Of a DNA stretch of 64,000 bases, positions 15,433 to 61,701 are shown piece after piece. Location of the stretch: the IMG/VR virus record IMGVR_UViG_3300043451_000039, positions 64,001 through 128,000 of that record. One strand, written 5' to 3'. Both the position numbers and the translations under genes were made by a program. This DNA is from a virus (Duplodnaviria > Heunggongvirae > Uroviricota > Caudoviricetes). Position 1 is the first letter of the stretch. The number at the start of each line of letters is the position of its first letter. The notes below the pieces were generated by a model. The model saw only the letters and a program-made list of their open reading frames with translations. It made no database searches and was not told the DNA's origin.

Positions 15433-15445
15433 ATTCTTATTTAGG

Positions 15446-22448: not shown

Positions 22449-22462
22449 CCTAAATAACCAAT

Positions 22463-33811: not shown

Positions 33812-33840
33812 ATTATACTTTAAGTATTATTGAAAGTCAA
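33812..33840 (-). promoter_or_regulatory. Sigma70 promoter of tmRNA
   Basis: TTGACT-N17-TATAAT directly upstream of the acceptor piece. Confidence 0.88.
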
Positions 33841-34319
33841 ATTAATCTCATAACCAAAACATATCTATTTGCATCAACTTTAGTAACTTCATGAGGGAAT
33901 TCGCTACCAGCTGGCGCAACAACCATAGTTCCTACTGTTGGTTTTATATCTATGCCTTGTTTTGGGTAAACTAAATGTCCACCATTAAAATTATCATTTA
34001 AGAATATGATAACAGAATGTGTCCATTCAGTAATCTTAACTATTTCTCCATTAGAAACGATAGAATTGTCGCAATGAATTTCATTGCCAGTTCCAGGTGG
34101 GTAAAATACTAGTGGAGCATTAACTACATTCCATTTATATTTTTCAGCAAGACGCTTAACAATACCATGTTCAAGCATTCTTCTGCGTTCTAAATTATTG
34201 TAATCACCATAATTGAAAGCAGGGTCTTCAGCAACAGTATTATCAATATTAGCGTCATGTATCAATTGTATACATTCAGCTTGTGATAACTCATTTGGGA
34301 CAATTATAATTTGTTCCAT
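33837..34319 (-). CDS. 2OG-Fe(II) oxygenase (prolyl-hydroxylase-like)
   Basis: HCD...FNGG.L.YP...PHEV...RY. Confidence 0.85.
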   Translation of the reverse strand: MEQIIIVPNELSQAECIQLIHDANIDNTVAEDPAFNYGDYNNLERRRMLEHGIVKRLAEKYKWNVVNAPLVFYPPGTGNEIHCDNSIVSNGEIVKITEWTHSVIIFLNDNFNGGHLVYPKQGIDIKPTVGTMVVAPAGSEFPHEVTKVDANRYVLVMRLI

Positions 34320-36830: not shown

Positions 36831-37436
36831 TTATCCATTTACATTAAATGCTACAGTAATTCTATTACCGTCACTATTACTTAGGGGAACTTCGTGCGCA
36901 AGCCAAGATGGCCATAATAAAATCATACCTTTTTTAACAGGAACCACAAATTCTGGCAATAAAGTGTAAGGTGTAGTCCTATTAAATATGGGCTCATAAT
37001 ATACATAATCATAATATGGTCTAGGATCTTTGAATATTAATGGTGGACTATCATCACAAGCATCAAGATAAAAACATCCAGAAAGCAAAGAACTTGGATG
37101 CGCATGTAAGTTATGCGTAGAATCTTTTCCTATTTTATTGAACAAATAAAATATGTTTGACCCCAAATCATTGTATCTATTCGCATCTACATTGTTATCA
37201 TTAAGGTACTGATATGAAATTCCTCTGATATAGTCTCCCAAGATTTTCATTCTTGGGTCATTCATTATCATAGCACCAACATCTTTATTTTTGTATGTGG
37301 AAATATGATTTTTAAATTTTGTTAAAACTGTTCCATGTTTTTCTAAATACTCATTCGCAATTGGAAGAATTTTATCAGCCAATTCTAATTGTATATCACT
37401 AAAAACGCAAGTGGGAAATATATGTGTATAAGCCAT
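36831..37436 (-). CDS. 2OG-Fe(II) oxygenase-like (TIGR02466-type)
   Basis: HAH..SLLSGCFY...WPSWLAHEV...RITVAFN; canonical TATAAATA at 37442-37449 upstream of MAYTHIF. Confidence 0.8.
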   Translation of the reverse strand: MAYTHIFPTCVFSDIQLELADKILPIANEYLEKHGTVLTKFKNHISTYKNKDVGAMIMNDPRMKILGDYIRGISYQYLNDNNVDANRYNDLGSNIFYLFNKIGKDSTHNLHAHPSSLLSGCFYLDACDDSPPLIFKDPRPYYDYVYYEPIFNRTTPYTLLPEFVVPVKKGMILLWPSWLAHEVPLSNSDGNRITVAFNVNG

Positions 37437-37444
37437 ATTTCTAT

Positions 37445-37981
37445 TTATACAACCCAATGCGGTGTTTCTCGGTTTTTCCAAGAAAACATTCTCTGTTTGT
37501 CTCCAAGATAATAATTCTTATATGATTGAATAGAATTACCTGCTACTTTATATTCATCAGGCATGGCTGGAGTAGGCTCAGTAAATTGCTCGTCCATATT
37601 AATATTCTTTGGTGGTCGAGCCAGAGTTGTTAGAAGTCTGGACGTGGCATGCTGTTTTCCATATCGGTAGGTGTATTCTTCGAGCAATTCGCAGAACAAG
37701 GTAAAGAGCCATCGATAGTTTTGTTCACCTCGTCGCGCCCAAACAGCACTAGGATGATTGATATGAGTAGCGCTGTAAAGAACAGAATCACGGTTGTCAG
37801 GTAGAGTCCACGATTTTTTTCTTCGTCCAGTTCCAGTAAGAACCACAGACTCAGTGCCATCAAGTACTCGATGTGCTGTAGAAAGAAGTTGAGCATATTC
37901 TAAAATCATTTTAACACAGTGCTTATCGACATGCATCTGTGCGCAGGTTTTTGGGTTTTTGTCGAGATAGAAAATATTCAT
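37445..37981 (-). CDS. Pyrimidine-dimer DNA glycosylase (DenV-like)
   Basis: 'MNIFYLD...HVDKHCVKMILEYAQLLST...THINHPS.VW'. Confidence 0.75.
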   Translation of the reverse strand: MNIFYLDKNPKTCAQMHVDKHCVKMILEYAQLLSTAHRVLDGTESVVLTGTGRRKKSWTLPDNRDSVLYSATHINHPSAVWARRGEQNYRWLFTLFCELLEEYTYRYGKQHATSRLLTTLARPPKNINMDEQFTEPTPAMPDEYKVAGNSIQSYKNYYLGDKQRMFSWKNRETPHWVV

Positions 37982-38256
37982 GGTAAAATTGCGCTTCCAA
38001 ATTCGTCAAGTTTAATTCGAGGAACATCATGCCAAAACATTTTTACAATACCAGTTCCATATTCATCGTGTTCTGAAATTTGCATTTGAAGTTTAACAGT
38101 TTGAATTTTACCTTCACCATCAACAACTTCAGCAACACGAAATTCATATGATAATGGTTTAACAAATTGAATAGGAATTGCAGGTGGTGACGATGGTGTT
38201 GGGGGTGTCACATATAATTGTTTGGTAGTCAATACACTCATTTTATCATTTTCCAA
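37978..38256 (-). CDS. Hypothetical protein
   Basis: ORF track; overlaps neighbours in operon fashion. Confidence 0.5.
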   Translation of the reverse strand: MENDKMSVLTTKQLYVTPPTPSSPPAIPIQFVKPLSYEFRVAEVVDGEGKIQTVKLQMQISEHDEYGTGIVKMFWHDVPRIKLDEFGSAILP

Positions 38257-38711
38257 AAATTAAAAGCCATAGAAATACGCTCACCACTACCAGCATTTGG
38301 TAACACACGATGAGACAAATCATCAGGAAACAAAACTAAAAGTCCTTCGGTTGGGATAACAAATCCCTCACCTTCACCATCTTGATACTCAAACGCTCCA
38401 GCATTTTCTGGTATTTGAATATAAAGACATCCACACATCTTATGGTCTTCACCACCATAATGATCATGCCAGAAATTATAATCATCACCTTCATTGATAT
38501 TGAACCAATAGGTTACTTCACCTTCATAATTCGCTTCTCGTTTAACTGCGTCAACAACTTCTTCAGCCCACGCATAAGATTTACGATTACAACGATCGCT
38601 TTGCCAACCACCAACATTAGTTCGCTGAACAAAATCGACAACGCCACGCAATGAAAGAACATTGGTGGCGAAGTTTTCAGGTAAATTAATATGCTTTAAG
38701 ACAACACTCAT
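38238..38711 (-). CDS. 2OG-Fe(II) oxygenase-like (TIGR02466-type)
   Basis: WHDH...LFPDDLSHRV...RISMAFN. Confidence 0.78.
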   Translation of the reverse strand: MSVVLKHINLPENFATNVLSLRGVVDFVQRTNVGGWQSDRCNRKSYAWAEEVVDAVKREANYEGEVTYWFNINEGDDYNFWHDHYGGEDHKMCGCLYIQIPENAGAFEYQDGEGEGFVIPTEGLLVLFPDDLSHRVLPNAGSGERISMAFNFWKMIK

Positions 38712-40295: not shown

Positions 40296-41215
40296 ATCTC
40301 AACTACTTTCAATTTAAAGTTATCGGCAAGTTCTTCATATCCAATATAACCACGAGGGTTACAAACAACACGACAATCACCAACCATATAATCAAACAAC
40401 TCATGCGTATGACCATGAGTCCACAATTTGATTCCTGGACGATCCAAGATAAACTCAGACAGGTCGCTATGATAACCCCCATTCATAACTTGATCATCCT
40501 TATAACGAGGGTGGCAAGATTTATGAGAAGGTGTGTGGTGACCAACAACTACCATCTGTTTCCATGGTGGCATATCTTCGTAGATAGTTTTGATGTAACC
40601 AAGCATTTTCTTATGTTCCTCAACTGCATCTTCTGGAGAGAACCGAGCAGTACGAGTATGAAACTCTACCCTAGTTCTTCCATTGATATCAGAAGCCAAC
40701 CATTCTTCGTCAGTCATACCTACTGGTTTATCAACTGGCACAAAAGTCTTAAATGATACTTGACGATTGCTATTATCAACACATCGGAAGTCATTCATCA
40801 TACGTGACATAGAATGTAGAGTGATAGGATCTTCCTTGTTCATATCAGTCCACAAAGTACCACCAACAAATACAACATCATCCAATTCAAAGATCTCACG
40901 ATCAAGGATATGTAAGTTAGTCAGATATCCAAGACGTTTCTTTAGATCTGTAATGGTATATTTAAAGTCTCCATGATAATGTTCATGATTCCCTGCCACA
41001 TATATTACATGAGGAAACCGAGCAGAACATTCTTGGAAGAATTTGTGATACCTAGATGACTTACCAAAGTCAATGATGCCGTATGGATCATGCTCCATTA
41101 AATCACGTGCTACACAAATGTCACCAGAGAGGATGAGAACATCAATCCCCTCATCGTTAAAAAGTTCAAGTGGTCCAAACTCTAGATGGACGTCACTGCA
41201 GATTGCGATTTTCAT
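40292..41215 (-). CDS. Calcineurin-like metallophosphoesterase
   Basis: 'SDVHLE', 'LSGDI', 'AGNHEHY', 'VVGHHTP', 'THGHTH'. Confidence 0.9.
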   Translation of the reverse strand: MKIAICSDVHLEFGPLELFNDEGIDVLILSGDICVARDLMEHDPYGIIDFGKSSRYHKFFQECSARFPHVIYVAGNHEHYHGDFKYTITDLKKRLGYLTNLHILDREIFELDDVVFVGGTLWTDMNKEDPITLHSMSRMMNDFRCVDNSNRQVSFKTFVPVDKPVGMTDEEWLASDINGRTRVEFHTRTARFSPEDAVEEHKKMLGYIKTIYEDMPPWKQMVVVGHHTPSHKSCHPRYKDDQVMNGGYHSDLSEFILDRPGIKLWTHGHTHELFDYMVGDCRVVCNPRGYIGYEELADNFKLKVVEI

Positions 41216-41838
41216 TATAAACCTTTGATTGTATTTACTTGTTTATCTTCGTTGTCTTTTATGCGCAAAAGATGTAACCACCCAGTGGCTATCCATTTTT
41301 GTTTTGTTAGGGATACTTGACTTCTATGCGTAAATGTCCAGTCAGCTGGCCACATCAAAGTCAAACCCTTTTCTGCTTTAATTGTAATGTTCTGATGTAA
41401 GAACTCAGTTCCACCATCGTCAACATCATTCAAGTATGTCATGAATACTAAATGCCTAGCAACTGATGGATAGTCAGCGGATTGGCGCTCATCGTGCCAA
41501 GTTTTAAAACCACCACCAACATCATAGTATTGAACATTAAACCCTTCTACTGGATAAACACCAGTACATAAGGCTCTATCGTATTTTTGAACATAAAGTT
41601 TGGCGCAGTCTTTTACAATGTTACCATACTTTAATTTTTCAAATGATTGTGGGTGGAAATGTAAATCTTTAGACTGTTTAATATTTGTATCAACATAACC
41701 ATAACTACCAACAAACCCATCAACTACATCTTTCTGATGATCATTGAATATTTGAATCAACTTATCACAGGCTGAAGTATCATCTAGATACCAACCCATC
41801 ATAAAATTATTCAGTTTGTTGATTTCGTGTTCTCTCAT
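41215..41838 (-). CDS. 2OG-Fe(II) oxygenase
   Basis: WHDE...MTYLNDV.DGGTEF...WPADWTFTHR...KWIATGW. Confidence 0.88.
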   Translation of the reverse strand: MREHEINKLNNFMMGWYLDDTSACDKLIQIFNDHQKDVVDGFVGSYGYVDTNIKQSKDLHFHPQSFEKLKYGNIVKDCAKLYVQKYDRALCTGVYPVEGFNVQYYDVGGGFKTWHDERQSADYPSVARHLVFMTYLNDVDDGGTEFLHQNITIKAEKGLTLMWPADWTFTHRSQVSLTKQKWIATGWLHLLRIKDNEDKQVNTIKGL

Positions 41839-42460: not shown

Positions 42461-42982
42461 TTAATAAACCCATGTTACAAAACTATACCTTGTTCCTTCG
42501 GTGACTTCTGTTACTTTATGAGGATACAAAAATGTTGATGGAAACAATAAGACATCCCCTTGTTTCAATTCAATCTTTGTATCTTCAAACATTATGAAGT
42601 CACCACCTTTATAATCATCATTTAATACACCAACAAATGAAATAGTAGGAATACCATCATCTGGGTGTCGTTTGATCAAATCATTATGAAGTGCCATTTG
42701 CTTGCCAGTTCCATACTTGTTTAATCGTATTGGACCCCAAGCTGAACCAACATTACCATATTTCTGATTGTATAGAAATAAACCCCTCTCAACTATCGGG
42801 TTAAACATTTCCATGACATCAGTGAATAGAACATCAAGTTCCTTGGACTTATCCTTACTCTCACCACCATACCAAAAATGCTGTTGCCAATTAGGATCGT
42901 TCTCTAACTTAGCGATAGCATCCTGACATAACTGCTTCGGTATGATATTTTGAATAAAGATAAAATCAGCCAGCTGCATCAT
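42461..42982 (-). CDS. 2OG-Fe(II) oxygenase (prolyl-hydroxylase-like)
   Basis: HND...LNDDYKGGDF...FPSTFLYPHKV..V..GTRYSFVTW. Confidence 0.9.
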   Translation of the reverse strand: MMQLADFIFIQNIIPKQLCQDAIAKLENDPNWQQHFWYGGESKDKSKELDVLFTDVMEMFNPIVERGLFLYNQKYGNVGSAWGPIRLNKYGTGKQMALHNDLIKRHPDDGIPTISFVGVLNDDYKGGDFIMFEDTKIELKQGDVLLFPSTFLYPHKVTEVTEGTRYSFVTWVY

Positions 42983-52599: not shown

Positions 52600-52886
52600 C
52601 CGTATGTCCTTAAAAGTTTTACTTGATTGTCTGGTGCTACATAAGCACGAGCAACGATTGTTGTATTGCCAGTGATGTAGTCTTTTGCTTGGTTAATCTC
52701 TACAAGTTTGTCATTGATCATTTGTTGAGCAATGGCAGCAGTCAATTTTAATCTCATGGCTTCACGAGCATCTTCATCACTCATGTGATGCATCATAACC
52801 TCTTCACTCACTACGATTTTGGCTCCAATCATTTTGCCACCAATGGCATAACTCTTTACATCAATGTCGATATCATCGCGCATCAT
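52596..52886 (-). CDS. Hypothetical protein
   Basis: ORF track; coupled to Acb1-like gene. Confidence 0.55.
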   Translation of the reverse strand: MMRDDIDIDVKSYAIGGKMIGAKIVVSEEVMMHHMSDEDAREAMRLKLTAAIAQQMINDKLVEINQAKDYITGNTTIVARAYVAPDNQVKLLRTYG

Positions 52887-53386
52887 TTGTTCTCTGGAGT
52901 AAACAATGGATCTAGTGGTGCCACATTCAGCTTATCAAAAACCAACTGGAACTGCGGTACTGGAAGAGTAGCAGGATCGATATCCTGACTCATGTCATAT
53001 GCCAATGTACAATGCGCTTTGTATTCAGCATAGTCGCTTGTTGCGCCTTCTTTCGACAACTGAGCATTTAGTTTAGTTGCGTAAGGACAAACCAAACGCA
53101 TCACCAAACACTTACCATCATTCTTTGTAGGGAATACTTCATAGCCAGTTACCATTGCTTCAACAGGCAATGTAGAGTTCATATGAAGATAGTTCTCAGC
53201 TGATGGCACTGGAGTGCGTGAATAGATTACCGTGATGTGGTATGTTTTTGGATCAACTCGTTCAGTCAATCCAAGATTCATCTCAACAAAGTTATCTAAC
53301 AACTTACGAGATTCTTCGCTCATCTCCAACGAAACATAGGTTCCATCTTTATGTTTAGCGTATTGTGTCAGTGACATGAGTGTCAT
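52883..53386 (-). CDS. acb1: 2H phosphodiesterase, T4 57B/Acb1-like (anti-CBASS candidate)
   Basis: 'GTYVS...', 'HITVIYSR.PVP', 'GATSDY.EY.AHCTLAY': two HxT motifs in the T4 57B layout. Confidence 0.75.
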   Translation of the reverse strand: MTLMSLTQYAKHKDGTYVSLEMSEESRKLLDNFVEMNLGLTERVDPKTYHITVIYSRTPVPSAENYLHMNSTLPVEAMVTGYEVFPTKNDGKCLVMRLVCPYATKLNAQLSKEGATSDYAEYKAHCTLAYDMSQDIDPATLPVPQFQLVFDKLNVAPLDPLFTPENK

Positions 53387-53541: not shown

Positions 53542-53742
53542 TTATCCGCCACGTCCTGCAGCACGCTTTACTGGTTTGTTAACAATGTTGTTAACTGCGC
53601 CTTTGACAAGTTTTGTCGCCTCAGACTTACTCATACCTTTTGATTGCAATGTTTTCTTCGCCTTCTTCTTTGCACGCTTCAATAATCTATCAGCATGCCA
53701 TTTCTCAGCAAATGCACTTGGTTGTTTCTTTTCTTCAGTCAT
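53542..53742 (-). CDS. Small basic hypothetical protein
   Basis: Lys-rich, ends 'KRAAGRGG'. Confidence 0.55.
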   Translation of the reverse strand: MTEEKKQPSAFAEKWHADRLLKRAKKKAKKTLQSKGMSKSEATKLVKGAVNNIVNKPVKRAAGRGG

Positions 53743-53743
53743 A

Positions 53744-54313
53744 TCATTTCTCCTGTAAAATACTCATCATTGAGTCGCTAAAATTTTCATATGCCATATT
53801 CCATGAGACTATGGTTTTTCTGTGCTCATTAACCTTTGGCGCTTTATGTATAAGGTAACTTGGGAAGATTAGGATATCTCCTTCCTTTACATCGGCTTCC
53901 ATTACTTCATGCGTCATTGGACATAACAACTGAGTCTTTGGGGAACCTTCTGGGAATTCCAAATAGTAAACACCAGTAAATGTATTTCCATGATGATGCC
54001 AGCCATGATAGTTCTTAACATTATATTGCTGGAACCACATATCAGTGATCAAAGGATCTTTGAACCCATACTCATTGCCAATAATCTGTAATTGATTAAC
54101 TATCACAGGCGCAAGGATCTTTATCCAATCTCTGGAAAAATCGCTACTGCGTTCCCAATCTAGTCCATCCAATGATATCGATATCTGAGATGAGTTCTCT
54201 GGTTGTATTGATTGGTTGTTTGATTCGATAATCTTTGATAGAACTATATCGCGCAGAGAACTATGCTCTGGTAGAACATCTATTGTGTAGAATGATTTTA
54301 AATTATATCTCAT
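53744..54313 (-). CDS. 2OG-Fe(II) oxygenase-like (TIGR02466-type)
   Basis: WHHH...FTGVYY...IFPSYLIHKA...RKTIVSWN. Confidence 0.8.
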   Translation of the reverse strand: MRYNLKSFYTIDVLPEHSSLRDIVLSKIIESNNQSIQPENSSQISISLDGLDWERSSDFSRDWIKILAPVIVNQLQIIGNEYGFKDPLITDMWFQQYNVKNYHGWHHHGNTFTGVYYLEFPEGSPKTQLLCPMTHEVMEADVKEGDILIFPSYLIHKAPKVNEHRKTIVSWNMAYENFSDSMMSILQEK

Positions 54314-55962
54314 TTACTCACCAACAAATTCTTTTCTGGTAAGTATAGATAGTTCAACTCAGACTTGGCCAGCGTTTTAATCGCATCATCAATAGTTTCA
54401 ACCATAGGGTCGCCACCAAGATTGAAACTTGTGTTGAACAGAATTGGTACACCAGTTCTTGAATTAAACTCAGAGATTAGATTATAGTAGTGTTCATTCT
54501 GTTCTCTAGTAACAGTTTGAATACGGCATGTGCCATCAACATGGGTAATGGAAGGTATAATCTCTTTCTTATCTTCAAGAACATCAACTGCATACATCAT
54601 GAATGGAGACTCATCAATACCACGCATATCAAAGTATTCATGAACAAATTCTTTCATGATAGTGCCAGCGAATGGGCGATACCATTCTCTATGTTTTACT
54701 CCATTGACAATATCTTTACCATTTTTAACACGTGGGTCGAATAAGATAGAACGATTACCAAGAGCACGTGGACCAGCCTCAGATCTACCTTGATACATCG
54801 CTACAATATTACCATCAATAATTAAATCAATAACATCTTTGTATGTTGCTTCTTTGACGCTGAATGATTCTGGTAGTTTATCTAAGCCATCATATGTTGG
54901 TATTGGTCCAAGGTAATAGTTCTTTTGCGCTGCTGGTTTCTTTCCAGTAATTTGCGCATACGCCAGTTTGGCAGCGCCTACTGAAAGACCACCATCATAT
55001 GCAGGTGGATCAACAAATAACTTTGTTCCTTCAGGTAGGTGTTTGAGGTATTCATAATTTGCTACGCAATTTAAACCATAACCACCAGAGACAACTACAT
55101 TTTTACAACCACTAAGTTCAATCGCCTTTAGAATGTATTCTGTTGCTTTCTGCTCGGTAGCCCTTTGAATTGCCCAACATAAGTTAGCATCATTGTATAG
55201 GTGTTTATTCAAAAGAGCAGGGCATGTCCAGCTACCTTCATCTTCCTCATACGCAAAGAATAGGTTTCTATTTGGGATTTGTTCTCCATCAATTTCTACA
55301 TAGACTGGCGGTATAGAACTATCTTCCTTCCCATATGAAGATAATCCCATTGCTTTACCACACTCAAGCGCAGAATGCCCTAATGATTTTGATAAAGAAT
55401 TATACAACATACCAATTCCTGGATAGCTGACGAACTTAAGAATTCCATCTTGGCTATATGATGTTCTATGATTATGTGGATTGGATGCTACTTTACTTAA
55501 TACTCCAATATCTGCTACGCCAGAGAATTTATAGATACTCTGAATTTCACCACCGTAAGAATTTTCTGATAATCTTAAAGGGCTTCCAGAACCATCCATA
55601 ATAACAACTACAGCTTCATCAAAGCCAGAGTTATAGAATGCGCCAGCAGCATGGTAAGTATGATGTAAAACATTACCATCATAGTTTACAACTTGCTTTG
55701 GTGATGCAATCAATCCTAGTTTTCTAGCATGAGCAATATATGGATTATTACCTATGTCAACTTTCATTTCATAGGGCACAGCAAAATAGTCAAGTTTATC
55801 AGTAAACTCTTTTATTTTAGAAATACCAAGAAACGGCATCTCATCATACTTTCTTCTTGATAGTCGTTCTTCTTCAATAAGAAATACTATCTCACCATTC
55901 TTAAGTAAGCATGTTGATGAATTGTGACCAGTAGTTATACCAGCAATCCAAATATCATTCAT
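54310..55962 (-). CDS. Carbamoyltransferase (NodU/CmcH/TobZ family)
   Basis: 'GHNSS..LL.NG..V..IEEERLSR.K', 'HH.YHA..AFY.SGF', 'SGGYGLNCVAN', 'GRSEAGPRALGNRSIL', 'HVDGTCRIQTV', 'NTSFN'. Confidence 0.93.
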   Translation of the reverse strand: MNDIWIAGITTGHNSSTCLLKNGEIVFLIEEERLSRRKYDEMPFLGISKIKEFTDKLDYFAVPYEMKVDIGNNPYIAHARKLGLIASPKQVVNYDGNVLHHTYHAAGAFYNSGFDEAVVVIMDGSGSPLRLSENSYGGEIQSIYKFSGVADIGVLSKVASNPHNHRTSYSQDGILKFVSYPGIGMLYNSLSKSLGHSALECGKAMGLSSYGKEDSSIPPVYVEIDGEQIPNRNLFFAYEEDEGSWTCPALLNKHLYNDANLCWAIQRATEQKATEYILKAIELSGCKNVVVSGGYGLNCVANYEYLKHLPEGTKLFVDPPAYDGGLSVGAAKLAYAQITGKKPAAQKNYYLGPIPTYDGLDKLPESFSVKEATYKDVIDLIIDGNIVAMYQGRSEAGPRALGNRSILFDPRVKNGKDIVNGVKHREWYRPFAGTIMKEFVHEYFDMRGIDESPFMMYAVDVLEDKKEIIPSITHVDGTCRIQTVTREQNEHYYNLISEFNSRTGVPILFNTSFNLGGDPMVETIDDAIKTLAKSELNYLYLPEKNLLVSK

Positions 55963-56558
55963 TTTTTCTTCCCACCAAAAACAAAATTAATAACTGTTCT
56001 GGATTCATTTGCTATTGGATTAGAGGACGCATGGAATCTTTTTGACTCGAACAAAACGATTCTACCTTTCTTTGGAGCAACTCTTTGAGCGATAGTAAGT
56101 TTTTCTGGCAAAGGTGAATTCTTATCATAGAACTCATTAAATAAAACAGTTTCACCATCAGAATCAGAAACATAATATACCATTGTAAATGTATTATTAC
56201 CTTCAGTATCATCTGGATGAGGGATATTATAATACCCAGAATACTTTTCATCAATTCTTAACATCTTGTTGAATTTGATTCTAAGATACTGATGAACTTC
56301 AACAGGTATCATTTGTTCAATTTCTAACAACATAGGTTTCATAAAAATAAAATATTCATTAAATTTTAAATGAATTGGAGCCTCTGTGTGAACAAGTGGG
56401 CATGTTAGATGTCCAACATCAATAATCTTGTCATCTTTCCAGTCATCAAAATTTAATACAGTTTTATTGTTCCAGAAATACTGAATATAAAATTCAGAAT
56501 CTCGTTCAATTTGATCAGCATATGATTTTGGAATAACATCATCAAAAATGTGTATCAT
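55959..56558 (-). CDS. 2OG-Fe(II) oxygenase
   Basis: PHPD...VYYV.DSDGET...PKKGR...FHAS...RTVINF. Confidence 0.85.
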   Translation of the reverse strand: MIHIFDDVIPKSYADQIERDSEFYIQYFWNNKTVLNFDDWKDDKIIDVGHLTCPLVHTEAPIHLKFNEYFIFMKPMLLEIEQMIPVEVHQYLRIKFNKMLRIDEKYSGYYNIPHPDDTEGNNTFTMVYYVSDSDGETVLFNEFYDKNSPLPEKLTIAQRVAPKKGRIVLFESKRFHASSNPIANESRTVINFVFGGKKK

Positions 56559-57256
56559 TATCCTTCTCCTCCACCCATATGTCTAATCATATTTTCATTG
56601 TCTTTATCTTCTAGAACCTTAATCCAATCTTCATACATCCTATGGATGTTAGAAACAATCAATACTCGCTCTTGATACACTGGTTTATGGTAGTCAGTTG
56701 GTTCAATGAAGTGAATCAGATATCCTGGACTCACAACCATCATACCTTCTTCGAGTCGGAGTCGTTTGAATGGACTGAATTGGTTGGTCCAGTTAACACC
56801 ACCACGTGGGTCAATGAATACCATATTACCTGGATTATCATTGTTCAGTTTAATGTAGAATACACCAACACCAAGAGTTGAACCATGTTGATGCGGTGTG
56901 ATTCGATACTCTACATTTGGATGGATGTGACGGAAATAACCCTTAGCAATACGCATAGGTGGTAGTGGCATTTCAGAATGGAGTGTTAATGTCTTTTCAG
57001 CTAATTCCAATTTCTTCTTCTGAACTTCTAACATAGTATCTGGTAGATCAGGCAGATCCCAAACATTAACGCTGTTTTTCTGCGCACGTGGAAGAACATA
57101 CTTGAATACATCTTCCTTCAACTTCTCAATGAAGTCTTGGCTAAATGGACGTGAAACACCGATTGGTGTTGACCACAATTGATGAATATTTTCTTGTTCT
57201 GGGCAGCTGAGTACTGTCTTTTTACCTGAGTCCGTCATTTCCATATTGTTTGACAT
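56558..57256 (-). CDS. 2OG-Fe(II) oxygenase-like (TIGR02466-type)
   Basis: PHQH...GVFYI...FIDPRG...PGYLIHF...RVLIVSN. Confidence 0.75.
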   Translation of the reverse strand: MSNNMEMTDSGKKTVLSCPEQENIHQLWSTPIGVSRPFSQDFIEKLKEDVFKYVLPRAQKNSVNVWDLPDLPDTMLEVQKKKLELAEKTLTLHSEMPLPPMRIAKGYFRHIHPNVEYRITPHQHGSTLGVGVFYIKLNNDNPGNMVFIDPRGGVNWTNQFSPFKRLRLEEGMMVVSPGYLIHFIEPTDYHKPVYQERVLIVSNIHRMYEDWIKVLEDKDNENMIRHMGGGEG

Positions 57257-57993
57257 TATCTTTTCCTAATTCTAAAAACTATACCATAACGCATCTGCTC
57301 TGCCCATGGTGATGTTGGTTTTGTTGTGTGAAGAGTTCTACCATCATAAAGGATAACTCTACCTGCTTTTGGCGCAACAAGCGCAAATGGCTCACCTACA
57401 CCGAAACCTCTTGACTGTCCAAAACCTCTTTGGAACTGTTGATTGTCTCCTGTAGTATCATCATCAGAATAGAAAATATTTTCTGCCATCCAAGTAGGAT
57501 ACCAATCAAGGTTTGCGATGTATAGTAATGTAAAGTGTTTGTCGTTATCTAACTCTATGGTATCTCTATGTATTCCATGAGATCGCTTAATAGTTTCACT
57601 TGGTTGAGCATTGACATAAACTCTGGCAAGACGCATTGGCTTCACAGCCATGCCCTCTGGATCTCCATCAATGATGAATTGATTACCAAGTTTGGAGTTT
57701 ATTTCTTCCCACAGTTCAAGTATAACAGGATGTTCTTGTTGAAGTTCATACTCATCTGCTCCAAAAATACATCTATGCATGTATTGATTATTAACAGAAG
57801 GTAATGTGTCATCAAGATATTCTTTTTTATTGTCTATTGGTCTATAGAAAATTTGATGCCCTGGATCTGGGTATGGGATATCTTTACGAGTTGCGTGGTA
57901 TTCTTGTTTCTGAACATAGTCCCAAACCCTCCATCGAAGGTCATCATTAACTATATCATCGAACGCTTGTACACTATATGTTTTCATAACCAC
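57256..57993 (-). CDS. 2OG-Fe(II) oxygenase
   Basis: IHRD...TLLY...PKAGRVILYDG.TLH...RYGIVF. Confidence 0.82.
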   Translation of the reverse strand: MVMKTYSVQAFDDIVNDDLRWRVWDYVQKQEYHATRKDIPYPDPGHQIFYRPIDNKKEYLDDTLPSVNNQYMHRCIFGADEYELQQEHPVILELWEEINSKLGNQFIIDGDPEGMAVKPMRLARVYVNAQPSETIKRSHGIHRDTIELDNDKHFTLLYIANLDWYPTWMAENIFYSDDDTTGDNQQFQRGFGQSRGFGVGEPFALVAPKAGRVILYDGRTLHTTKPTSPWAEQMRYGIVFRIRKR

Positions 57994-58640
57994 TCAGCAA
58001 AGAAATATTGATTTAGAACTTTTTTATTTTTGTATGTTTGCGCATGGAGAGTGCCACCTTTCCACGATACCATTCTATTATACACGTTCTTAACCTCGCA
58101 AGTCAAATCGAAGTTGTTATCATGTTGCATGCGCATTTCTTTGAATTGTTCAAGTGTGATTTTACCTGCTCTATACAGTTCGCCTGGAATTGTGTATTCA
58201 TCAATACAATGTTTGACTACCTCTTGATCATTCCAGTTTACATGGGGTTTGAATTTATGAATAGAAACAACACCATCTGGATTTGGATTTTTAGTCAGAA
58301 GAATTTGCCCACAAAATGCTAATCTATATTCTTCAACAGTAGCCCTACATACATCAGGGTTCTTTCCATCCATATGAATTGTTGATGTATTAAAAATATC
58401 ATCAGTATCATTATAGAAGTGTTCCATGAAGAAGATATTCATCTTAACTGCTCGTGGGTCTACTCCATGGATATTACATAATCCATTCTTAACTTGGGTG
58501 AATAGGTTTGAATCTAGTTGCTGTAAATCAATGCTTCTTGCGCCAGTTCCACAACCAACGATTGGAAAATCATTTACAAGTTTCAGTATGACTTCTGGAT
58601 CATCATAGAAATTATCAAGAACCTTGATATCTGTTATCAT
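57984..58640 (-). CDS. 2OG-Fe(II) oxygenase-like (DUF6445-like)
   Basis: 'VLDNFYDDP', IHMD, 'NVYNRMV.WKGGTLHA'. Confidence 0.72.
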   Translation of the reverse strand: MITDIKVLDNFYDDPEVILKLVNDFPIVGCGTGARSIDLQQLDSNLFTQVKNGLCNIHGVDPRAVKMNIFFMEHFYNDTDDIFNTSTIHMDGKNPDVCRATVEEYRLAFCGQILLTKNPNPDGVVSIHKFKPHVNWNDQEVVKHCIDEYTIPGELYRAGKITLEQFKEMRMQHDNNFDLTCEVKNVYNRMVSWKGGTLHAQTYKNKKVLNQYFFAEWL

Positions 58641-58993
58641 AGTTTATCAATCTTTAATTTAGTTTCTCTCTGTTCGTATTTATACCGATTAAACCATTCC
58701 TTATGTATCTTAATAGAGAAATCTACTTTGTTATTTTTAATGTATTGGTAAAGATCTTTGTATAAAGATGACAACAGATTCAATTCATTCATGTCCCTAT
58801 ACAAGTCATCAACAATGTCATCTTCAATATCTTTAGTCCATATCAAAGATGCTTTCTTACCTTCTATACTGAGAACAACCGATAGATTGTAAATTACTTT
58901 GTTGTCAACTCGAATTGAATCAACACCAATTGAAATTACATCATTTGGAGAAACCTTTGATGCTATGTGTTCTATATTAAGTTCGTGTGCCAT
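58637..58993 (-). CDS. Hypothetical protein within the oxygenase operon
   Basis: ORF track; overlapping starts/stops. Confidence 0.55.
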   Translation of the reverse strand: MAHELNIEHIASKVSPNDVISIGVDSIRVDNKVIYNLSVVLSIEGKKASLIWTKDIEDDIVDDLYRDMNELNLLSSLYKDLYQYIKNNKVDFSIKIHKEWFNRYKYEQRETKLKIDKL

Positions 58994-59573
58994 TTACAAA
59001 AATATTATAGTTGATAACGCATCTGATGTCATTGGATGGTTTACTACCGCAATGGTAGATATCACCATCAAATATGATCATTCTACCTTTTTTAGGATTG
59101 ACTCGTAATCTCTCAGTTAGATTACCATTCATTACATCAGATGTGGGTGTAGTAGTTGATCGTTCATTAAAAATTATTGTGTCGCCATCTGAATCATTAA
59201 CATAGTATAGACAAACTTTGTATGGTCGATCCATATGCGAATCAACATGAACAGAGCCATACTTTTCTTTAGATGGAACTGGCAATTGTAACTGCGCCCT
59301 CATATTGAACAACGCTTCTATGTTATAGTTCAGTTGTCCGCAGAGGGCGATTAATGGTTCATTGTAAAGATTTATGTTATTGTCTAGAACAGTTTCCTGA
59401 AAGATTAAATGGGTAAACCCCATGATACTTTTCTTTGTTTCCTCAGAAACTTCTGCGTTGTTCTTATACGCTATACTTCTTGATAATATCCATCCAGTAT
59501 CAGCCGATAGAAGGGTTTGTTCTATTCTATCCTGAATATCAACTGGGACAACATCATCAAGAATTTCTATCAT
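58977..59573 (-). CDS. 2OG-Fe(II) oxygenase
   Basis: VHVD...LYYVNDSDGDT...PKKGR..IFDG.IYH...RCVINYN. Confidence 0.85.
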   Translation of the reverse strand: MIEILDDVVPVDIQDRIEQTLLSADTGWILSRSIAYKNNAEVSEETKKSIMGFTHLIFQETVLDNNINLYNEPLIALCGQLNYNIEALFNMRAQLQLPVPSKEKYGSVHVDSHMDRPYKVCLYYVNDSDGDTIIFNERSTTTPTSDVMNGNLTERLRVNPKKGRMIIFDGDIYHCGSKPSNDIRCVINYNIFVNGTRT

Positions 59574-59686
59574 TATCTACCTTGACCACGATATGGTTTG
59601 CGAGTTTTACGACTCTTGTTTAATGTGCTTGTCTTGCTGCCATTCTGACAGGTTTTCTTAACTAATCTTGTATGCTTTGATGCCAC
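59573..59686 (-). CDS. 37-aa basic peptide ending KPYRGQGR
   Basis: Not in ORF track; AAGGAG SD, GTG start, TAATG overlap with next gene; MASKHTRLVKKTCQNGSKTSTLNKSRKTRKPYRGQGR*. Confidence 0.75.
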   Translation of the reverse strand: MASKHTRLVKKTCQNGSKTSTLNKSRKTRKPYRGQGR

Positions 59687-59695
59687 GATATCTCC

Positions 59696-60316
59696 TTAAA
59701 TTGGTATCCAATGGTTCAGATTTTTGTAGTTACCTGACTCCATTAATTTTACTGCTGGAACAATGTCAAAAGCAATAGTAATCCTTGGTCTAGTTTCATC
59801 ATGCCATTCTGATGACCTATGTAAGTCTTCACCACTCTTACTCAACACCAATAAATTATTCTCACTCTTAACTTCTAATTGTAAATCATTCACCTTGTAT
59901 GTAGTAGATGAATCTGGTTCTACATCTAAACAATAAAATCCATGCCATGATTCAAAATCTTTGTCACCATGAGTATGCCAATCAATGAATTGACCTTTCT
60001 GATAGAAGTTTAACCAGCACTGAATATAGTAATCATCATAAGGTTCTTTACCATACTTGTTTAAGTTGCATGAATGGAAAGTCTCTTTGATCACATTATA
60101 CAGTTTGTGTAATCCAGGCGCTGGATACAGTAGAAGGTTATACTTGTTGTATAAAAACTCAGTGACAGTGTATTGACCATCAAAATCAGATTTATCTTCT
60201 TGGAAATTATCCTTGATAAATTGATACATAAAATGCGATGTGGACCTTAACTCTTCCAAGTCAAGATCCACTTTTCGGGTATAGATAAAATTCGAATACA
60301 GATTAATATTGTTCAT
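59696..60316 (-). CDS. 2OG-Fe(II) oxygenase-like
   Basis: WHTH...WHGFYC...DLHRS...RITIAFD; late-type CTAAATA at 60322-60328. Confidence 0.75.
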   Translation of the reverse strand: MNNINLYSNFIYTRKVDLDLEELRSTSHFMYQFIKDNFQEDKSDFDGQYTVTEFLYNKYNLLLYPAPGLHKLYNVIKETFHSCNLNKYGKEPYDDYYIQCWLNFYQKGQFIDWHTHGDKDFESWHGFYCLDVEPDSSTTYKVNDLQLEVKSENNLLVLSKSGEDLHRSSEWHDETRPRITIAFDIVPAVKLMESGNYKNLNHWIPI

Positions 60317-60343
60317 TAATGTATTTAGTCATATCAAAGGTGA

Positions 60344-60595: not shown

Positions 60596-61171
60596 TTACA
60601 GAATACCTTCTTCTTGTAACAGAGCCTCATCAGCACCAGTAATGGTGATCAGAGTGTTAACATTCAAACTCAACAGTTTGTCCTGAAGAGCCTGACGTGC
60701 ACGCTTCAACTCTTTTACTCGAGCCTTGGCAACATCAATCTCATTTTGTGTCACAACAGAAGTTTCCACCATGTTGTAACGATCACCGTAAATACGGCTC
60801 TCAGTGTTTGGGGTTGTCTTCAGCTTCTCCACACGAGCGATAACCTCGCTCAGTGGTTTTGCCACAGACTGAACTGCGATTTGGCTATGGATAGCCATCT
60901 CTTGGTCCAACGCTTCCACATTACCCAACAGAGTGTTGATACCAACAGTTGCGTTGGCATTTGCTACGCTGTTGCGGATATTGTAAAGTGCTTTTGTCAA
61001 AGCAACCTTACGCTCATTGGCACGTTGGTATGCGATAGTCGCATCAACGATTGCGTTGCTGATATTTTCAGTGTACTCAGTAACACTGATACTTGCTTCC
61101 AACTTAACTGCAGAGATAGCCTTACGGATCTCAGCTTGGATAGCGTTTGCTTTACGTAGATTAATTTCCAT
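60596..61171 (-). CDS. 191-aa helical/coiled-coil protein of unknown function
   Basis: ATG at 61171; heptad-like helices; has its own promoter. Confidence 0.75.
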   Translation of the reverse strand: MEINLRKANAIQAEIRKAISAVKLEASISVTEYTENISNAIVDATIAYQRANERKVALTKALYNIRNSVANANATVGINTLLGNVEALDQEMAIHSQIAVQSVAKPLSEVIARVEKLKTTPNTESRIYGDRYNMVETSVVTQNEIDVAKARVKELKRARQALQDKLLSLNVNTLITITGADEALLQEEGIL

Positions 61172-61194
61172 ATTCAACCTTTCAATATATTAAT

Positions 61195-61227: not shown

Positions 61228-61701
61228 TTATGCTGCCATGTAAGTTTTGTATCTATCAGCAGCATATGATGCAGCGAATGCCTTTGGCTTTACCATAGGA
61301 ATCACATTACACATACCTTTGATGTAACCAGTCGCTTCGTTGATAACACATGACGAACCATGCATTTCATTTGGGTTAATGTCCAGATGAACTTCAACCT
61401 CGCGATCTTCTAACACATCATGCAACTTTAAATACAAGTCTGCAATCTTATAAACTTCGTTCATTAGACGCATACGTGGTTTGTCTCGTTTCTGATCCCA
61501 GTCACGTTCTCGTTGCACTTCACCAAAAATTTTACAGCCATTGTTACCATTGATATGAACAACAACAACCATAATGTAATCTGCGTACCAATCTTTTCCA
61601 ATTAGGAATCGTTCAGAGTCACCACCGATATAGATCTTAGATTCAGGACTCTGTGCCATGATGAATTCTCTTACTTCATCAATATCAATTTGCTTACGCA
61701 T
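61228..61701 (-). CDS. RNase H-like YkuK (DUF458) family protein
   Basis: 'KIYIGGDS', 'RLMNEV', 'EVHLDIN', 'AASYAAD'. Confidence 0.78.
   Translation of the reverse strand: MRKQIDIDEVREFIMAQSPESKIYIGGDSERFLIGKDWYADYIMVVVVHINGNNGCKIFGEVQRERDWDQKRDKPRMRLMNEVYKIADLYLKLHDVLEDREVEVHLDINPNEMHGSSCVINEATGYIKGMCNVIPMVKPKAFAASYAADRYKTYMAA

Follow-up and report, generated by a model that had tools for sequence, protein, structure and literature searches.

A variable island of predicted oxygenases with a carbamoyltransferase in an uncultured T4-like phage

The gene block

We analysed a 64,000-nt window, bases 64001-128000 of the 174,396-bp IMG/VR virus record IMGVR_UViG_3300043451_000039, whose ends share a 127-bp overlap and which is circular in the assembly. 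The subject of this work is a block of genes within that window that encodes seven oxygenase-fold proteins together with a carbamoyltransferase (CT). A preliminary description, made from the sequence alone, had taken the block for a late-promoter-led operon and an uncharacterised modification pathway. As it stated, ten back-to-back minus-strand open reading frames (ORFs) fill 53744-60316, and a CTAAATA motif stands ahead of the first of them. The features are listed below in the order of transcription; d1 lies outside the span that was originally described.

CTAAATA: 60322-60328, minus strand; motif resembling T4-type late promoters, 5 nt ahead of the ATG of g1
g1: 59696-60316, minus strand; 206 aa, PF13759-type (HxH...H) oxygenase-fold protein
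g2: 59573-59686, minus strand; 37-aa basic peptide ending KPYRGQGR, with a GTG start and an AAGGAG ribosome-binding site 5 nt upstream
g3: 58977-59573, minus strand; 198 aa, prolyl 4-hydroxylase (P4H)-type 2-oxoglutarate (2OG) oxygenase (HVD...H...R)
g4: 58637-58993, minus strand; 118-aa hypothetical protein
g5: 57984-58640, minus strand; 218 aa, divergent oxygenase-fold protein (HMD...H)
g6: 57256-57987, minus strand; divergent P4H-type oxygenase (HRD...H...R)
g7: 56558-57256, minus strand; 232 aa, PF13759-type oxygenase-fold protein
g8: 55959-56558, minus strand; 199 aa, prolyl-hydroxylase-like 2OG oxygenase
g9: 54310-55962, minus strand; 550 aa, TobZ/NodU/NovN-family O-carbamoyltransferase (the CT)
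g10: 53744-54313, minus strand; 189 aa, PF13759/TIGR02466-type oxygenase-fold protein
d1: 53542-53742, minus strand; 66-aa Lys-rich protein ending AAGRGG

Within the block, neighbouring genes overlap by 1, 4, 10 or 17 nt, except that 9 nt separate g1 from g2, and the stop codon of g8 overlaps the start of the CT gene. For g6, the ATG at 57987 (243 aa) is a likelier start than the GTG at 57993 (245 aa). The tight coupling that had been noted is thus present, but it does not serve as the mark of an operon. Genome-wide, 120 of 209 same-strand neighbour pairs overlap or lie no more than 10 nt apart, so that such coupling is the norm of this genome and no evidence for a dedicated operon. The coupled chain also runs on past 53744, where d1 starts 1 nt after g10 and is followed by a 40-aa ORF, an Acb1 homologue and others. 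A terminator scan gave no convincing minus-strand terminator inside the block, and an Rfam scan of 52-62 kb returned only tRNAs; the island is positioned after a tRNA array.

The number of CTAAATA copies in the window is that expected by chance (15 versus 14 expected). Genome-wide, 10 of 41 copies lie on the coding strand within 40 nt upstream of a start, compared to a median of 2 of 48 for 7-mers of the same composition, which places CTAAATA first among 105 such 7-mers. With a placement beyond chance, the motif is a credible late-promoter-like element, and to that extent the reading of the block as a set of modification enzymes, as yet uncharacterised, with such a motif at its head is supported. 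In the structural module, two more copies are also only 5-6 nt ahead of a start ATG (15438-15444, minus strand; 22450-22456, plus strand). If CTAAATA at this distance acts as a late promoter, the genes behind it would be transcribed as nearly leaderless mRNAs.

The seven oxygenases

All seven oxygenase assignments are supported by a combination of Pfam and PHROG matches, profile links, metal-binding motifs and two fold models. In Pfam, g8 (PF13640, 3e-8) and g10 (PF13759, 9e-10, 39 bits) score above the gathering cut-off and g3 (PF13640, 1.6e-4) falls just below it. PHROG 2OG-oxygenase families match g1 (phrog_81, 1.3e-12), g3, g7 (phrog_81, 3.6e-13), g8 and g10 (phrog_81, 5e-30). The family phrog_274 is matched by g3 (7e-36), g6 (1.4e-9) and g8, and phrog_1644 is matched by g5 (2e-11). 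Weak, sub-threshold NCBIfam matches, which we treat as leads only, point to FlmC-family oxygenases for g3, g6 and g8 and to TIGR02466 for g10 (1e-6). Iterated profiles built on the fetched loci join all seven proteins into one superfamily, and the oxygenase profiles also capture 33 of 35 members of the g5 family. The nearest Atlas clusters of g6 are viral, some of them with PF13640.

Catalytic motifs are readable throughout, in the form HxD...H...R in g3, g5, g6 and g8 and in the form HxH...H...R in g1 (WHTHGD, LHRS), g7 and g10. Residues H122, H124, H182 and R197 of g7 are invariant among 105 homologues, as are H114, D116, H176 and R187 of g8 among 24. When the seven were compared with each other by phmmer, only g3 and g8 detected one another (7e-15); by this measure the oxygenases are mutually divergent and do not look like recent duplicates.

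Fold models cover g7 and g8. Sequence and profile searches of these two against PDB sequences returned chance-level matches only, and a fold search was used for that reason. The AlphaFold (AF2) models of g7 (predicted local distance difference test score, pLDDT, 85) and g8 (pLDDT 91) both show a double-stranded beta-helix fold. The best PDB fold matches of g7 are the uncharacterised PF13759-type structures 3bvc and 2rg4, along with SptF-type dioxygenases, which act on small molecules. For g8 the top matches are PHD2, the Pseudomonas P4H, PBCV-1 vCPH, PolD and Tpa1, with template modelling (TM) scores of ~0.5-0.6; for PHD2, the bacterial P4H and vCPH the E values are ~1e-7.

Eight further oxygenase/cupin-like genes lie outside the block, five in the window and three elsewhere in the genome, and with the TET/JBP gene described below they bring the genome to ~16 oxygenase-like genes, an unusually high number. 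Their positions are as follows.

33837-34319, 36831-37481, 38238-38711, 41215-41838 and 42461-42982 of the window, all minus strand; oxygenase/cupin-like genes
2410-2958, 140494-141138 and 171697-172293 of the genome; oxygenase/cupin-like genes

In passing, the label 'DNA endonuclease V / denV' carried by SSSM7_124 of phage S-SSM7 (L210:12364-12918) and by phrog_274 looks wrong, because the product of SSSM7_124 hits PF13640 at 5e-9 and shares homology with the prolyl-hydroxylase-fold proteins g3 and g8.

The carbamoyltransferase and its neighbours

The assignment of g9 to the NodU-family carbamoyltransferases stands, as both domains are found (PF02543, 6e-18; PF16861, 8e-60) in an architecture of a Kae1-like N-terminal and a YrdC-like C-terminal domain, and g9 matches phrog_1601 at 6e-158. 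Its best PDB sequence matches are NovN (1e-51), GdmN and TobZ, in a range from 1e-51 to 1e-41. The segments HHTYH...MDGSG (the HxxxH...D metal site) and GPRALGNRS (the carbamoyl-phosphate/ATP site) align with NovN. In these metal and carbamoyl-phosphate/ATP motifs g9 resembles TobZ, NovN, GdmN and NodU, the natural-product and Nod-factor enzymes that all O-carbamoylate a hydroxyl, although its identity to them is low and lies mainly in the C-terminal two thirds.

Homologues of the CT occur in at least 349 IMG/VR stretches. Across 47 non-redundant loci, an oxygenase gene is directly adjacent in 21 and lies within two genes in 32, so the association of CTs with 2OG oxygenases seen in the block is recurrent in viral contigs and well above background. 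Among 148 CT-neighbour proteins from 37 loci, the commonest Pfam families are PF13759 (22), PF13640 (11) and DUF6445 (9), after which come tail assembly chaperones (9), PfkB (7) and tryptophan halogenases (6), and then cytidylyltransferase and epimerases. No strict oxygenase partner of the CT was found; g8-like genes adjoin it in four islands and are also present in CT-less ones.

Variability of the island among relatives

In the closest relatives (L004, L006, L011 and L019, the last identical to L212) an island is found at the same site, where it follows a PF04308 gene of 92-95% identity. The flanking gene u2 shows 92-95% identity across L004, L006, L019 and L217. Island genes compared among these sisters have 24-90% identity and are reordered, gained or lost. 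The best-conserved island member is g7; g1 has an 88% identical orthologue in L004, g6 has orthologues of 66-69% identity in L011, L019 and L218, and g5 has one of 47% identity in L019, where the order g3-g5-g6-g7...g8-CT is kept. The islands of L213, L215, L217 and L218-220 hold four to nine oxygenase-like genes and d1 but no CT, and neither of the complete relatives G001 and G002 has a CT anywhere. Sister islands additionally contain a tryptophan halogenase (L011; it is also present in L010), of which there is none in the island under study, and S-adenosylmethionine (SAM) methyltransferases.

The fixed ten-gene pathway of the preliminary description is not supported by this comparison, given that the sister islands are mosaics and that several have 6-9 oxygenases without a CT. 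A neighbourhood that is not conserved had been named among the refuting conditions, and what the comparison reveals is enzymes reshuffled between phages whose flanks are 92-95% identical. From its gene content across relatives, the island appears as a hypervariable (hyperplastic) accessory slot and not as a fixed pathway.

One sister island also contains a 139-aa gene (L006:8609-9028) with a weak, sub-threshold match (3.7e-4) to PF04377, the C-terminal domain of Arg-tRNA-protein transferase. If real, the match would hint at aminoacyl-tRNA-dependent protein modification beside the tRNA array. Genes of 139 aa occupy the matching position in L214 and L218-220.

DNA as a target

Packaged DNA had been offered as one substrate for hydroxylation followed by carbamoylation. 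The enzymatic precedent named in its support is confirmed by the literature, as a phage carbamoyltransferase that carbamoylates 5-hydroxymethylcytosine (5hmC) in DNA and RNA has been characterised (MetaGPA; Yang et al. 2021, PMC8670742). Like g9, it is phage-encoded and belongs to the same two-domain TobZ-like family; for the 5hmC enzymes the study points to differential residues at TobZ positions 408, 421 and 423. It differs in its company, co-occurring with a thymidylate-synthase-type hydroxymethylase, a dCMP deaminase and MazG, none of which is found near g9 or its relatives; the 148 CT neighbours from 37 loci include no thymidylate synthase (PF00303), dCMP deaminase or MazG. The statement that no hydroxymethylase or TET/JBP partner is evident holds for the window. 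In the complete genome a thymidylate-synthase-type hydroxymethylase (PF00303) is still absent, as is a C5-methyltransferase (PF00145), but a TET/JBP dioxygenase is encoded.

This TET/JBP protein (454 aa, 90 bits against PF12851) is located at 172.3-173.7 kb, ~50 kb from the CT block, in an island of the replication module (genome 167549-173657; L086:7549-13657, minus strand). Its partners there are an Oxy_5 (PF13759) oxygenase whose gene adjoins that of TET/JBP, a glutamine amidotransferase, a GNAT protein, and the island's own amino-acid:DNA transferase (PF18724) and P-loop nucleotide kinase 3 (PF18751). We take this gene content to be the set expected for thymidine hypermodification, and the cluster is likely a thymidine-hypermodification island. 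Since there is no thymidylate-synthase-type hydroxymethylase, the hydroxymethyl base would be made on DNA by TET/JBP. With TET/JBP encoded, the DNA of this phage is probably modified; however, the complete relatives G001 and G002 keep TET/JBP while both lack a CT.

Phylogeny of the CT against 5hmC-type enzymes had been suggested as a test, which we ran with a proxy clade for the DNA-modification CTs made up of two small-phage CTs, that of Bacteroides phage BF494P1, which adjoins dCMP hydroxymethylase genes, and that of Acinetobacter phage HHU4, whose neighbours are unannotated. In the tree, g9 falls in a six-member clade that is sister to cyanophage CTs and far from the proxies; it has 25-29% identity to these over the C-terminal half only, and the separating branches amount to ~5 substitutions per site. 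The N-terminal motif of the proxies, LTLGH(N/G)xSA, agrees with the published LTLGHNASA, whereas g9 has ITTGHNSS.

On this view, bases of the phage DNA would be hydroxylated first and carbamoylated next by the oxygenases and the CT; in one version 5hmC becomes 5-carbamoyloxymethylcytosine, and in another the 5-hydroxymethyl bases made by TET/JBP are decorated. The known 5hmC enzyme, the TET/JBP gene and its adjoining oxygenase speak for such a scheme. With no hydroxymethylase or C5-methylase in the genome, none of the 5hmC partners beside the CTs, a CT on a distant branch and a TET/JBP island that is remote, separately equipped and kept without a CT, we consider it very improbable, and the proposal of packaged DNA as the target is not upheld.

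The small proteins

A second suggestion was that the g2 peptide is used in the manner of a ribosomally synthesised and post-translationally modified peptide (RiPP), with g2, or by extension d1, as the substrate that the enzymes around it hydroxylate and carbamoylate. Several features are consistent with it: g2 stands in translational coupling with an oxygenase gene on either side, d1 is found inside most sister islands, g2 and d1 are alike in being basic and in having an Arg/Gly motif at the C-terminus, and g8 is, by its fold model, similar to protein prolyl hydroxylases. A degenerate pattern search, however, found small ORFs ending in KPYRGQGR in at least 119 IMG/VR contigs, where by our estimate fewer than one would arise by chance. 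These form a family of basic ORFs of 40-50 aa, mostly with a MAK start and with an invariant C-terminus, which has no Pfam or PHROG model. Their neighbours are mostly M15 peptidase, gp25-/gp6-like baseplate and MazG genes; oxygenases account for 12 of 1411 neighbouring genes and CTs for none. An oxygenase directly upstream, as in the block, is found in two of 119 other loci of the family, and in only these two. The g2 peptide is present in no sister island.

For d1, homologues fall into 161 clusters and are inside the variable island in most relatives, though the protein is far better conserved than the island enzymes and occurs in L226 and L227 with at most one oxygenase gene nearby and no CT. 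Its source annotations are inconsistent (Xre regulator, L22 and others). Leader-recognition and protease genes are missing from the picture as well. A RiPP-like role for the 37-aa peptide, whose family is widespread without oxygenases or CT and missing from sister islands, thus finds little room, and we would give the idea only a slim chance. Instead, g2 and d1 appear to be resident small basic phage proteins and not dedicated precursors.

The remaining small protein, g4, has weak matches to PF04308 (0.0024) and phrog_11311 (5e-5), and weakly resembles, in shortened form, the RNase H-like PF04308 gene that lies upstream at 61228-61701 (BLASTP, 27% identity, E value 0.001). It has no homologue in the sister islands.

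Comparison with known systems

The window contains T4-like genes for the baseplate wedge and hub, the tail-tube cap and gp32, and DNA polymerase B, UvsX and a gp41-type helicase are encoded elsewhere in the genome; by its genes, the source is an uncultured T4-like myovirus from water. For its gp6-like protein, the nearest cultured phages are the Pelagibacter phages Mosig and HTVC008M and the Methylophilales phage Melnitz, at ~42% identity, and psbA was not found in the complete genome. On these two grounds the host is probably a heterotroph and not a cyanobacterium. Despite this likely host, the accessory genes resemble those of cyanomyoviruses. A megablast search of the gene block against GenBank phages gave no match.

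In cyanophage Syn9, ten dioxygenases from five or more families stand in tandem, together with two tryptophan halogenases (Iyer 2010, PMC2938197; genome, Weigele 2007), and cyanomyoviruses more broadly have multiple 2OG oxygenases and carbamoyltransferases (Sullivan 2010, PMC3037559). The present phage shares with Syn9 a T4-like myovirus background, a one-strand run of mutually unrelated Fe(II)/2OG dioxygenases without an assigned substrate and, in its sister islands, the tryptophan halogenase. It differs in that the island adds a CT, has no halogenase of its own and shows no JmjC/MINA-type member, and in that the phage has no psbA and probably not a cyanobacterial host. Closer in content are S-SSM7, P-SSM2, S-CAM3 and Sf-FS3, in which a 'Nol-like' CT with 43-45% identity to g9 is flanked by P4H-type and PF13759-type oxygenases (PMC3037559). 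Those cyanophage clusters lie between tail-fibre and neck genes in the company of heptose-nucleotide, epimerase and tail-fibre chaperone-like genes, while the present island follows a tRNA array and has none of these heptose, epimerase or chaperone-like genes. In S-SSM7, a CT and heptose genes are found together with a halogenase and no fewer than five oxygenase-like genes. By this comparison the block is a member of the known kind of tandem dioxygenase array found in cyanomyoviruses such as Syn9 and S-SSM7.

For cyanophage oxygenases, a drawdown of 2OG acting through NtcA, or DNA repair, has been proposed (Sullivan 2010, PMC3037559). Applied here, the oxygenases would mainly consume 2OG and O2, or repair alkylated nucleic acids, and the CT would be an unrelated neighbour. 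The ~16 oxygenase-like genes do not sit in one block but are spread across the genome, and the CT is dispensable in relatives, both of which would fit. The phage is probably not a cyanophage, however, so that the NtcA logic need not apply, and seven intact families with conserved catalytic residues suggest distinct substrates. No AlkB-type enzyme is among the listed fold matches of g7 and g8, and a CT that is merely a bystander sits poorly with CT-oxygenase adjacency well above background. We regard a metabolic or regulatory role of this kind as unlikely.

Proposed function

The reading we prefer, with a probability of roughly 60%, is that the block is a variable-island set of separate tailoring enzymes acting on a molecule other than nucleic acid that is made late in infection. 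What we observe are the genes present, their folds and catalytic motifs, how the island varies and in which contexts its genes occur; from these we infer enzyme activity, expression timing and substrate. The enzymes would act independently of each other and not as steps of one linear pathway. Four of the oxygenases are prolyl-hydroxylase-like (HxD...H) and three PF13759-type (HxH...H), all predicted to be Fe(II)-dependent and of the 2OG type, and each would hydroxylate its own site. The CT, where present, would cap a hydroxyl with a carbamoyl group in a reaction expected to depend on ATP and carbamoyl phosphate, the hydroxyl being either native or made by an oxygenase. As to the target, we give about even odds to a protein of phage or host, or to a glycan that it carries; a small metabolite is a lesser but appreciable possibility, and DNA or RNA is improbable.

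A number of points weigh against this interpretation. The fold matches are generic (TM ~0.5-0.6) and, as far as the models go, span protein and small-molecule hydroxylases, so that they do not fix the substrate class. For the PF13759 family we know of no characterised member and of no demonstrated use of 2OG. Expression late in infection may be questioned, since a CTAAATA element 5 nt from the g1 ATG would give a nearly leaderless mRNA, and read-through from the upstream gene at 60596-61177 is equally possible because no minus-strand terminator lies between that gene and g1. CT-oxygenase adjacency far above background leaves some probability for a real coupling of hydroxylation to carbamoylation, in place of independent action, and an optional decoration of TET/JBP-made 5-hydroxymethyl bases by the CT keeps a small one. 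Finally, no gene of the island is of a sugar-activating or glycosyl-transfer type, and the genome encodes no collagen-like protein, so that the glycan and collagen-type protein versions rest on relatives only. A search of the genome for P4H substrates found no collagen-like (G-X-Y) protein and only two mildly Pro-rich ones.

One bolder hypothesis would view the island as an arms-race toolbox that edits a protein chemically, by hydroxylating it and, in the islands that have a CT, by then O-carbamoylating the hydroxyl so introduced. The protein could be one on the surface of the virion or in its tail, one of the host, or one of the small basic proteins of the island. We know of no precedent for protein hydroxylation followed by O-carbamoylation, and hold this hypothesis to be doubtful. 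Were it true, the reshuffling of enzymes between near-identical phages would reflect selection on the decoration pattern.

Since 2007-2010, runs of unrelated dioxygenase genes in tandem have been known from large aquatic phages, with no substrate ever identified. To this the present analysis adds that such arrays are probably not confined to cyanophages, that within one lineage the content of one hyperplastic slot turns over while its flanks stay 92-95% identical, and that the CT is an optional module unconnected to the separate TET/JBP DNA-modification island of the phage. By itself this reveals no new mechanism, but it narrows the search towards the tailoring of a protein, glycan or metabolite, and it makes natural pairs of CT-plus and CT-minus phages available for comparison.

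The Acb1 homologue just downstream of the island (52883-53386, minus strand) is a protein of 167 aa that matches PF23474 at 2.4e-22; Acb1 is a 2H phosphodiesterase directed against the cyclic-oligonucleotide-based antiphage signalling system (anti-CBASS).

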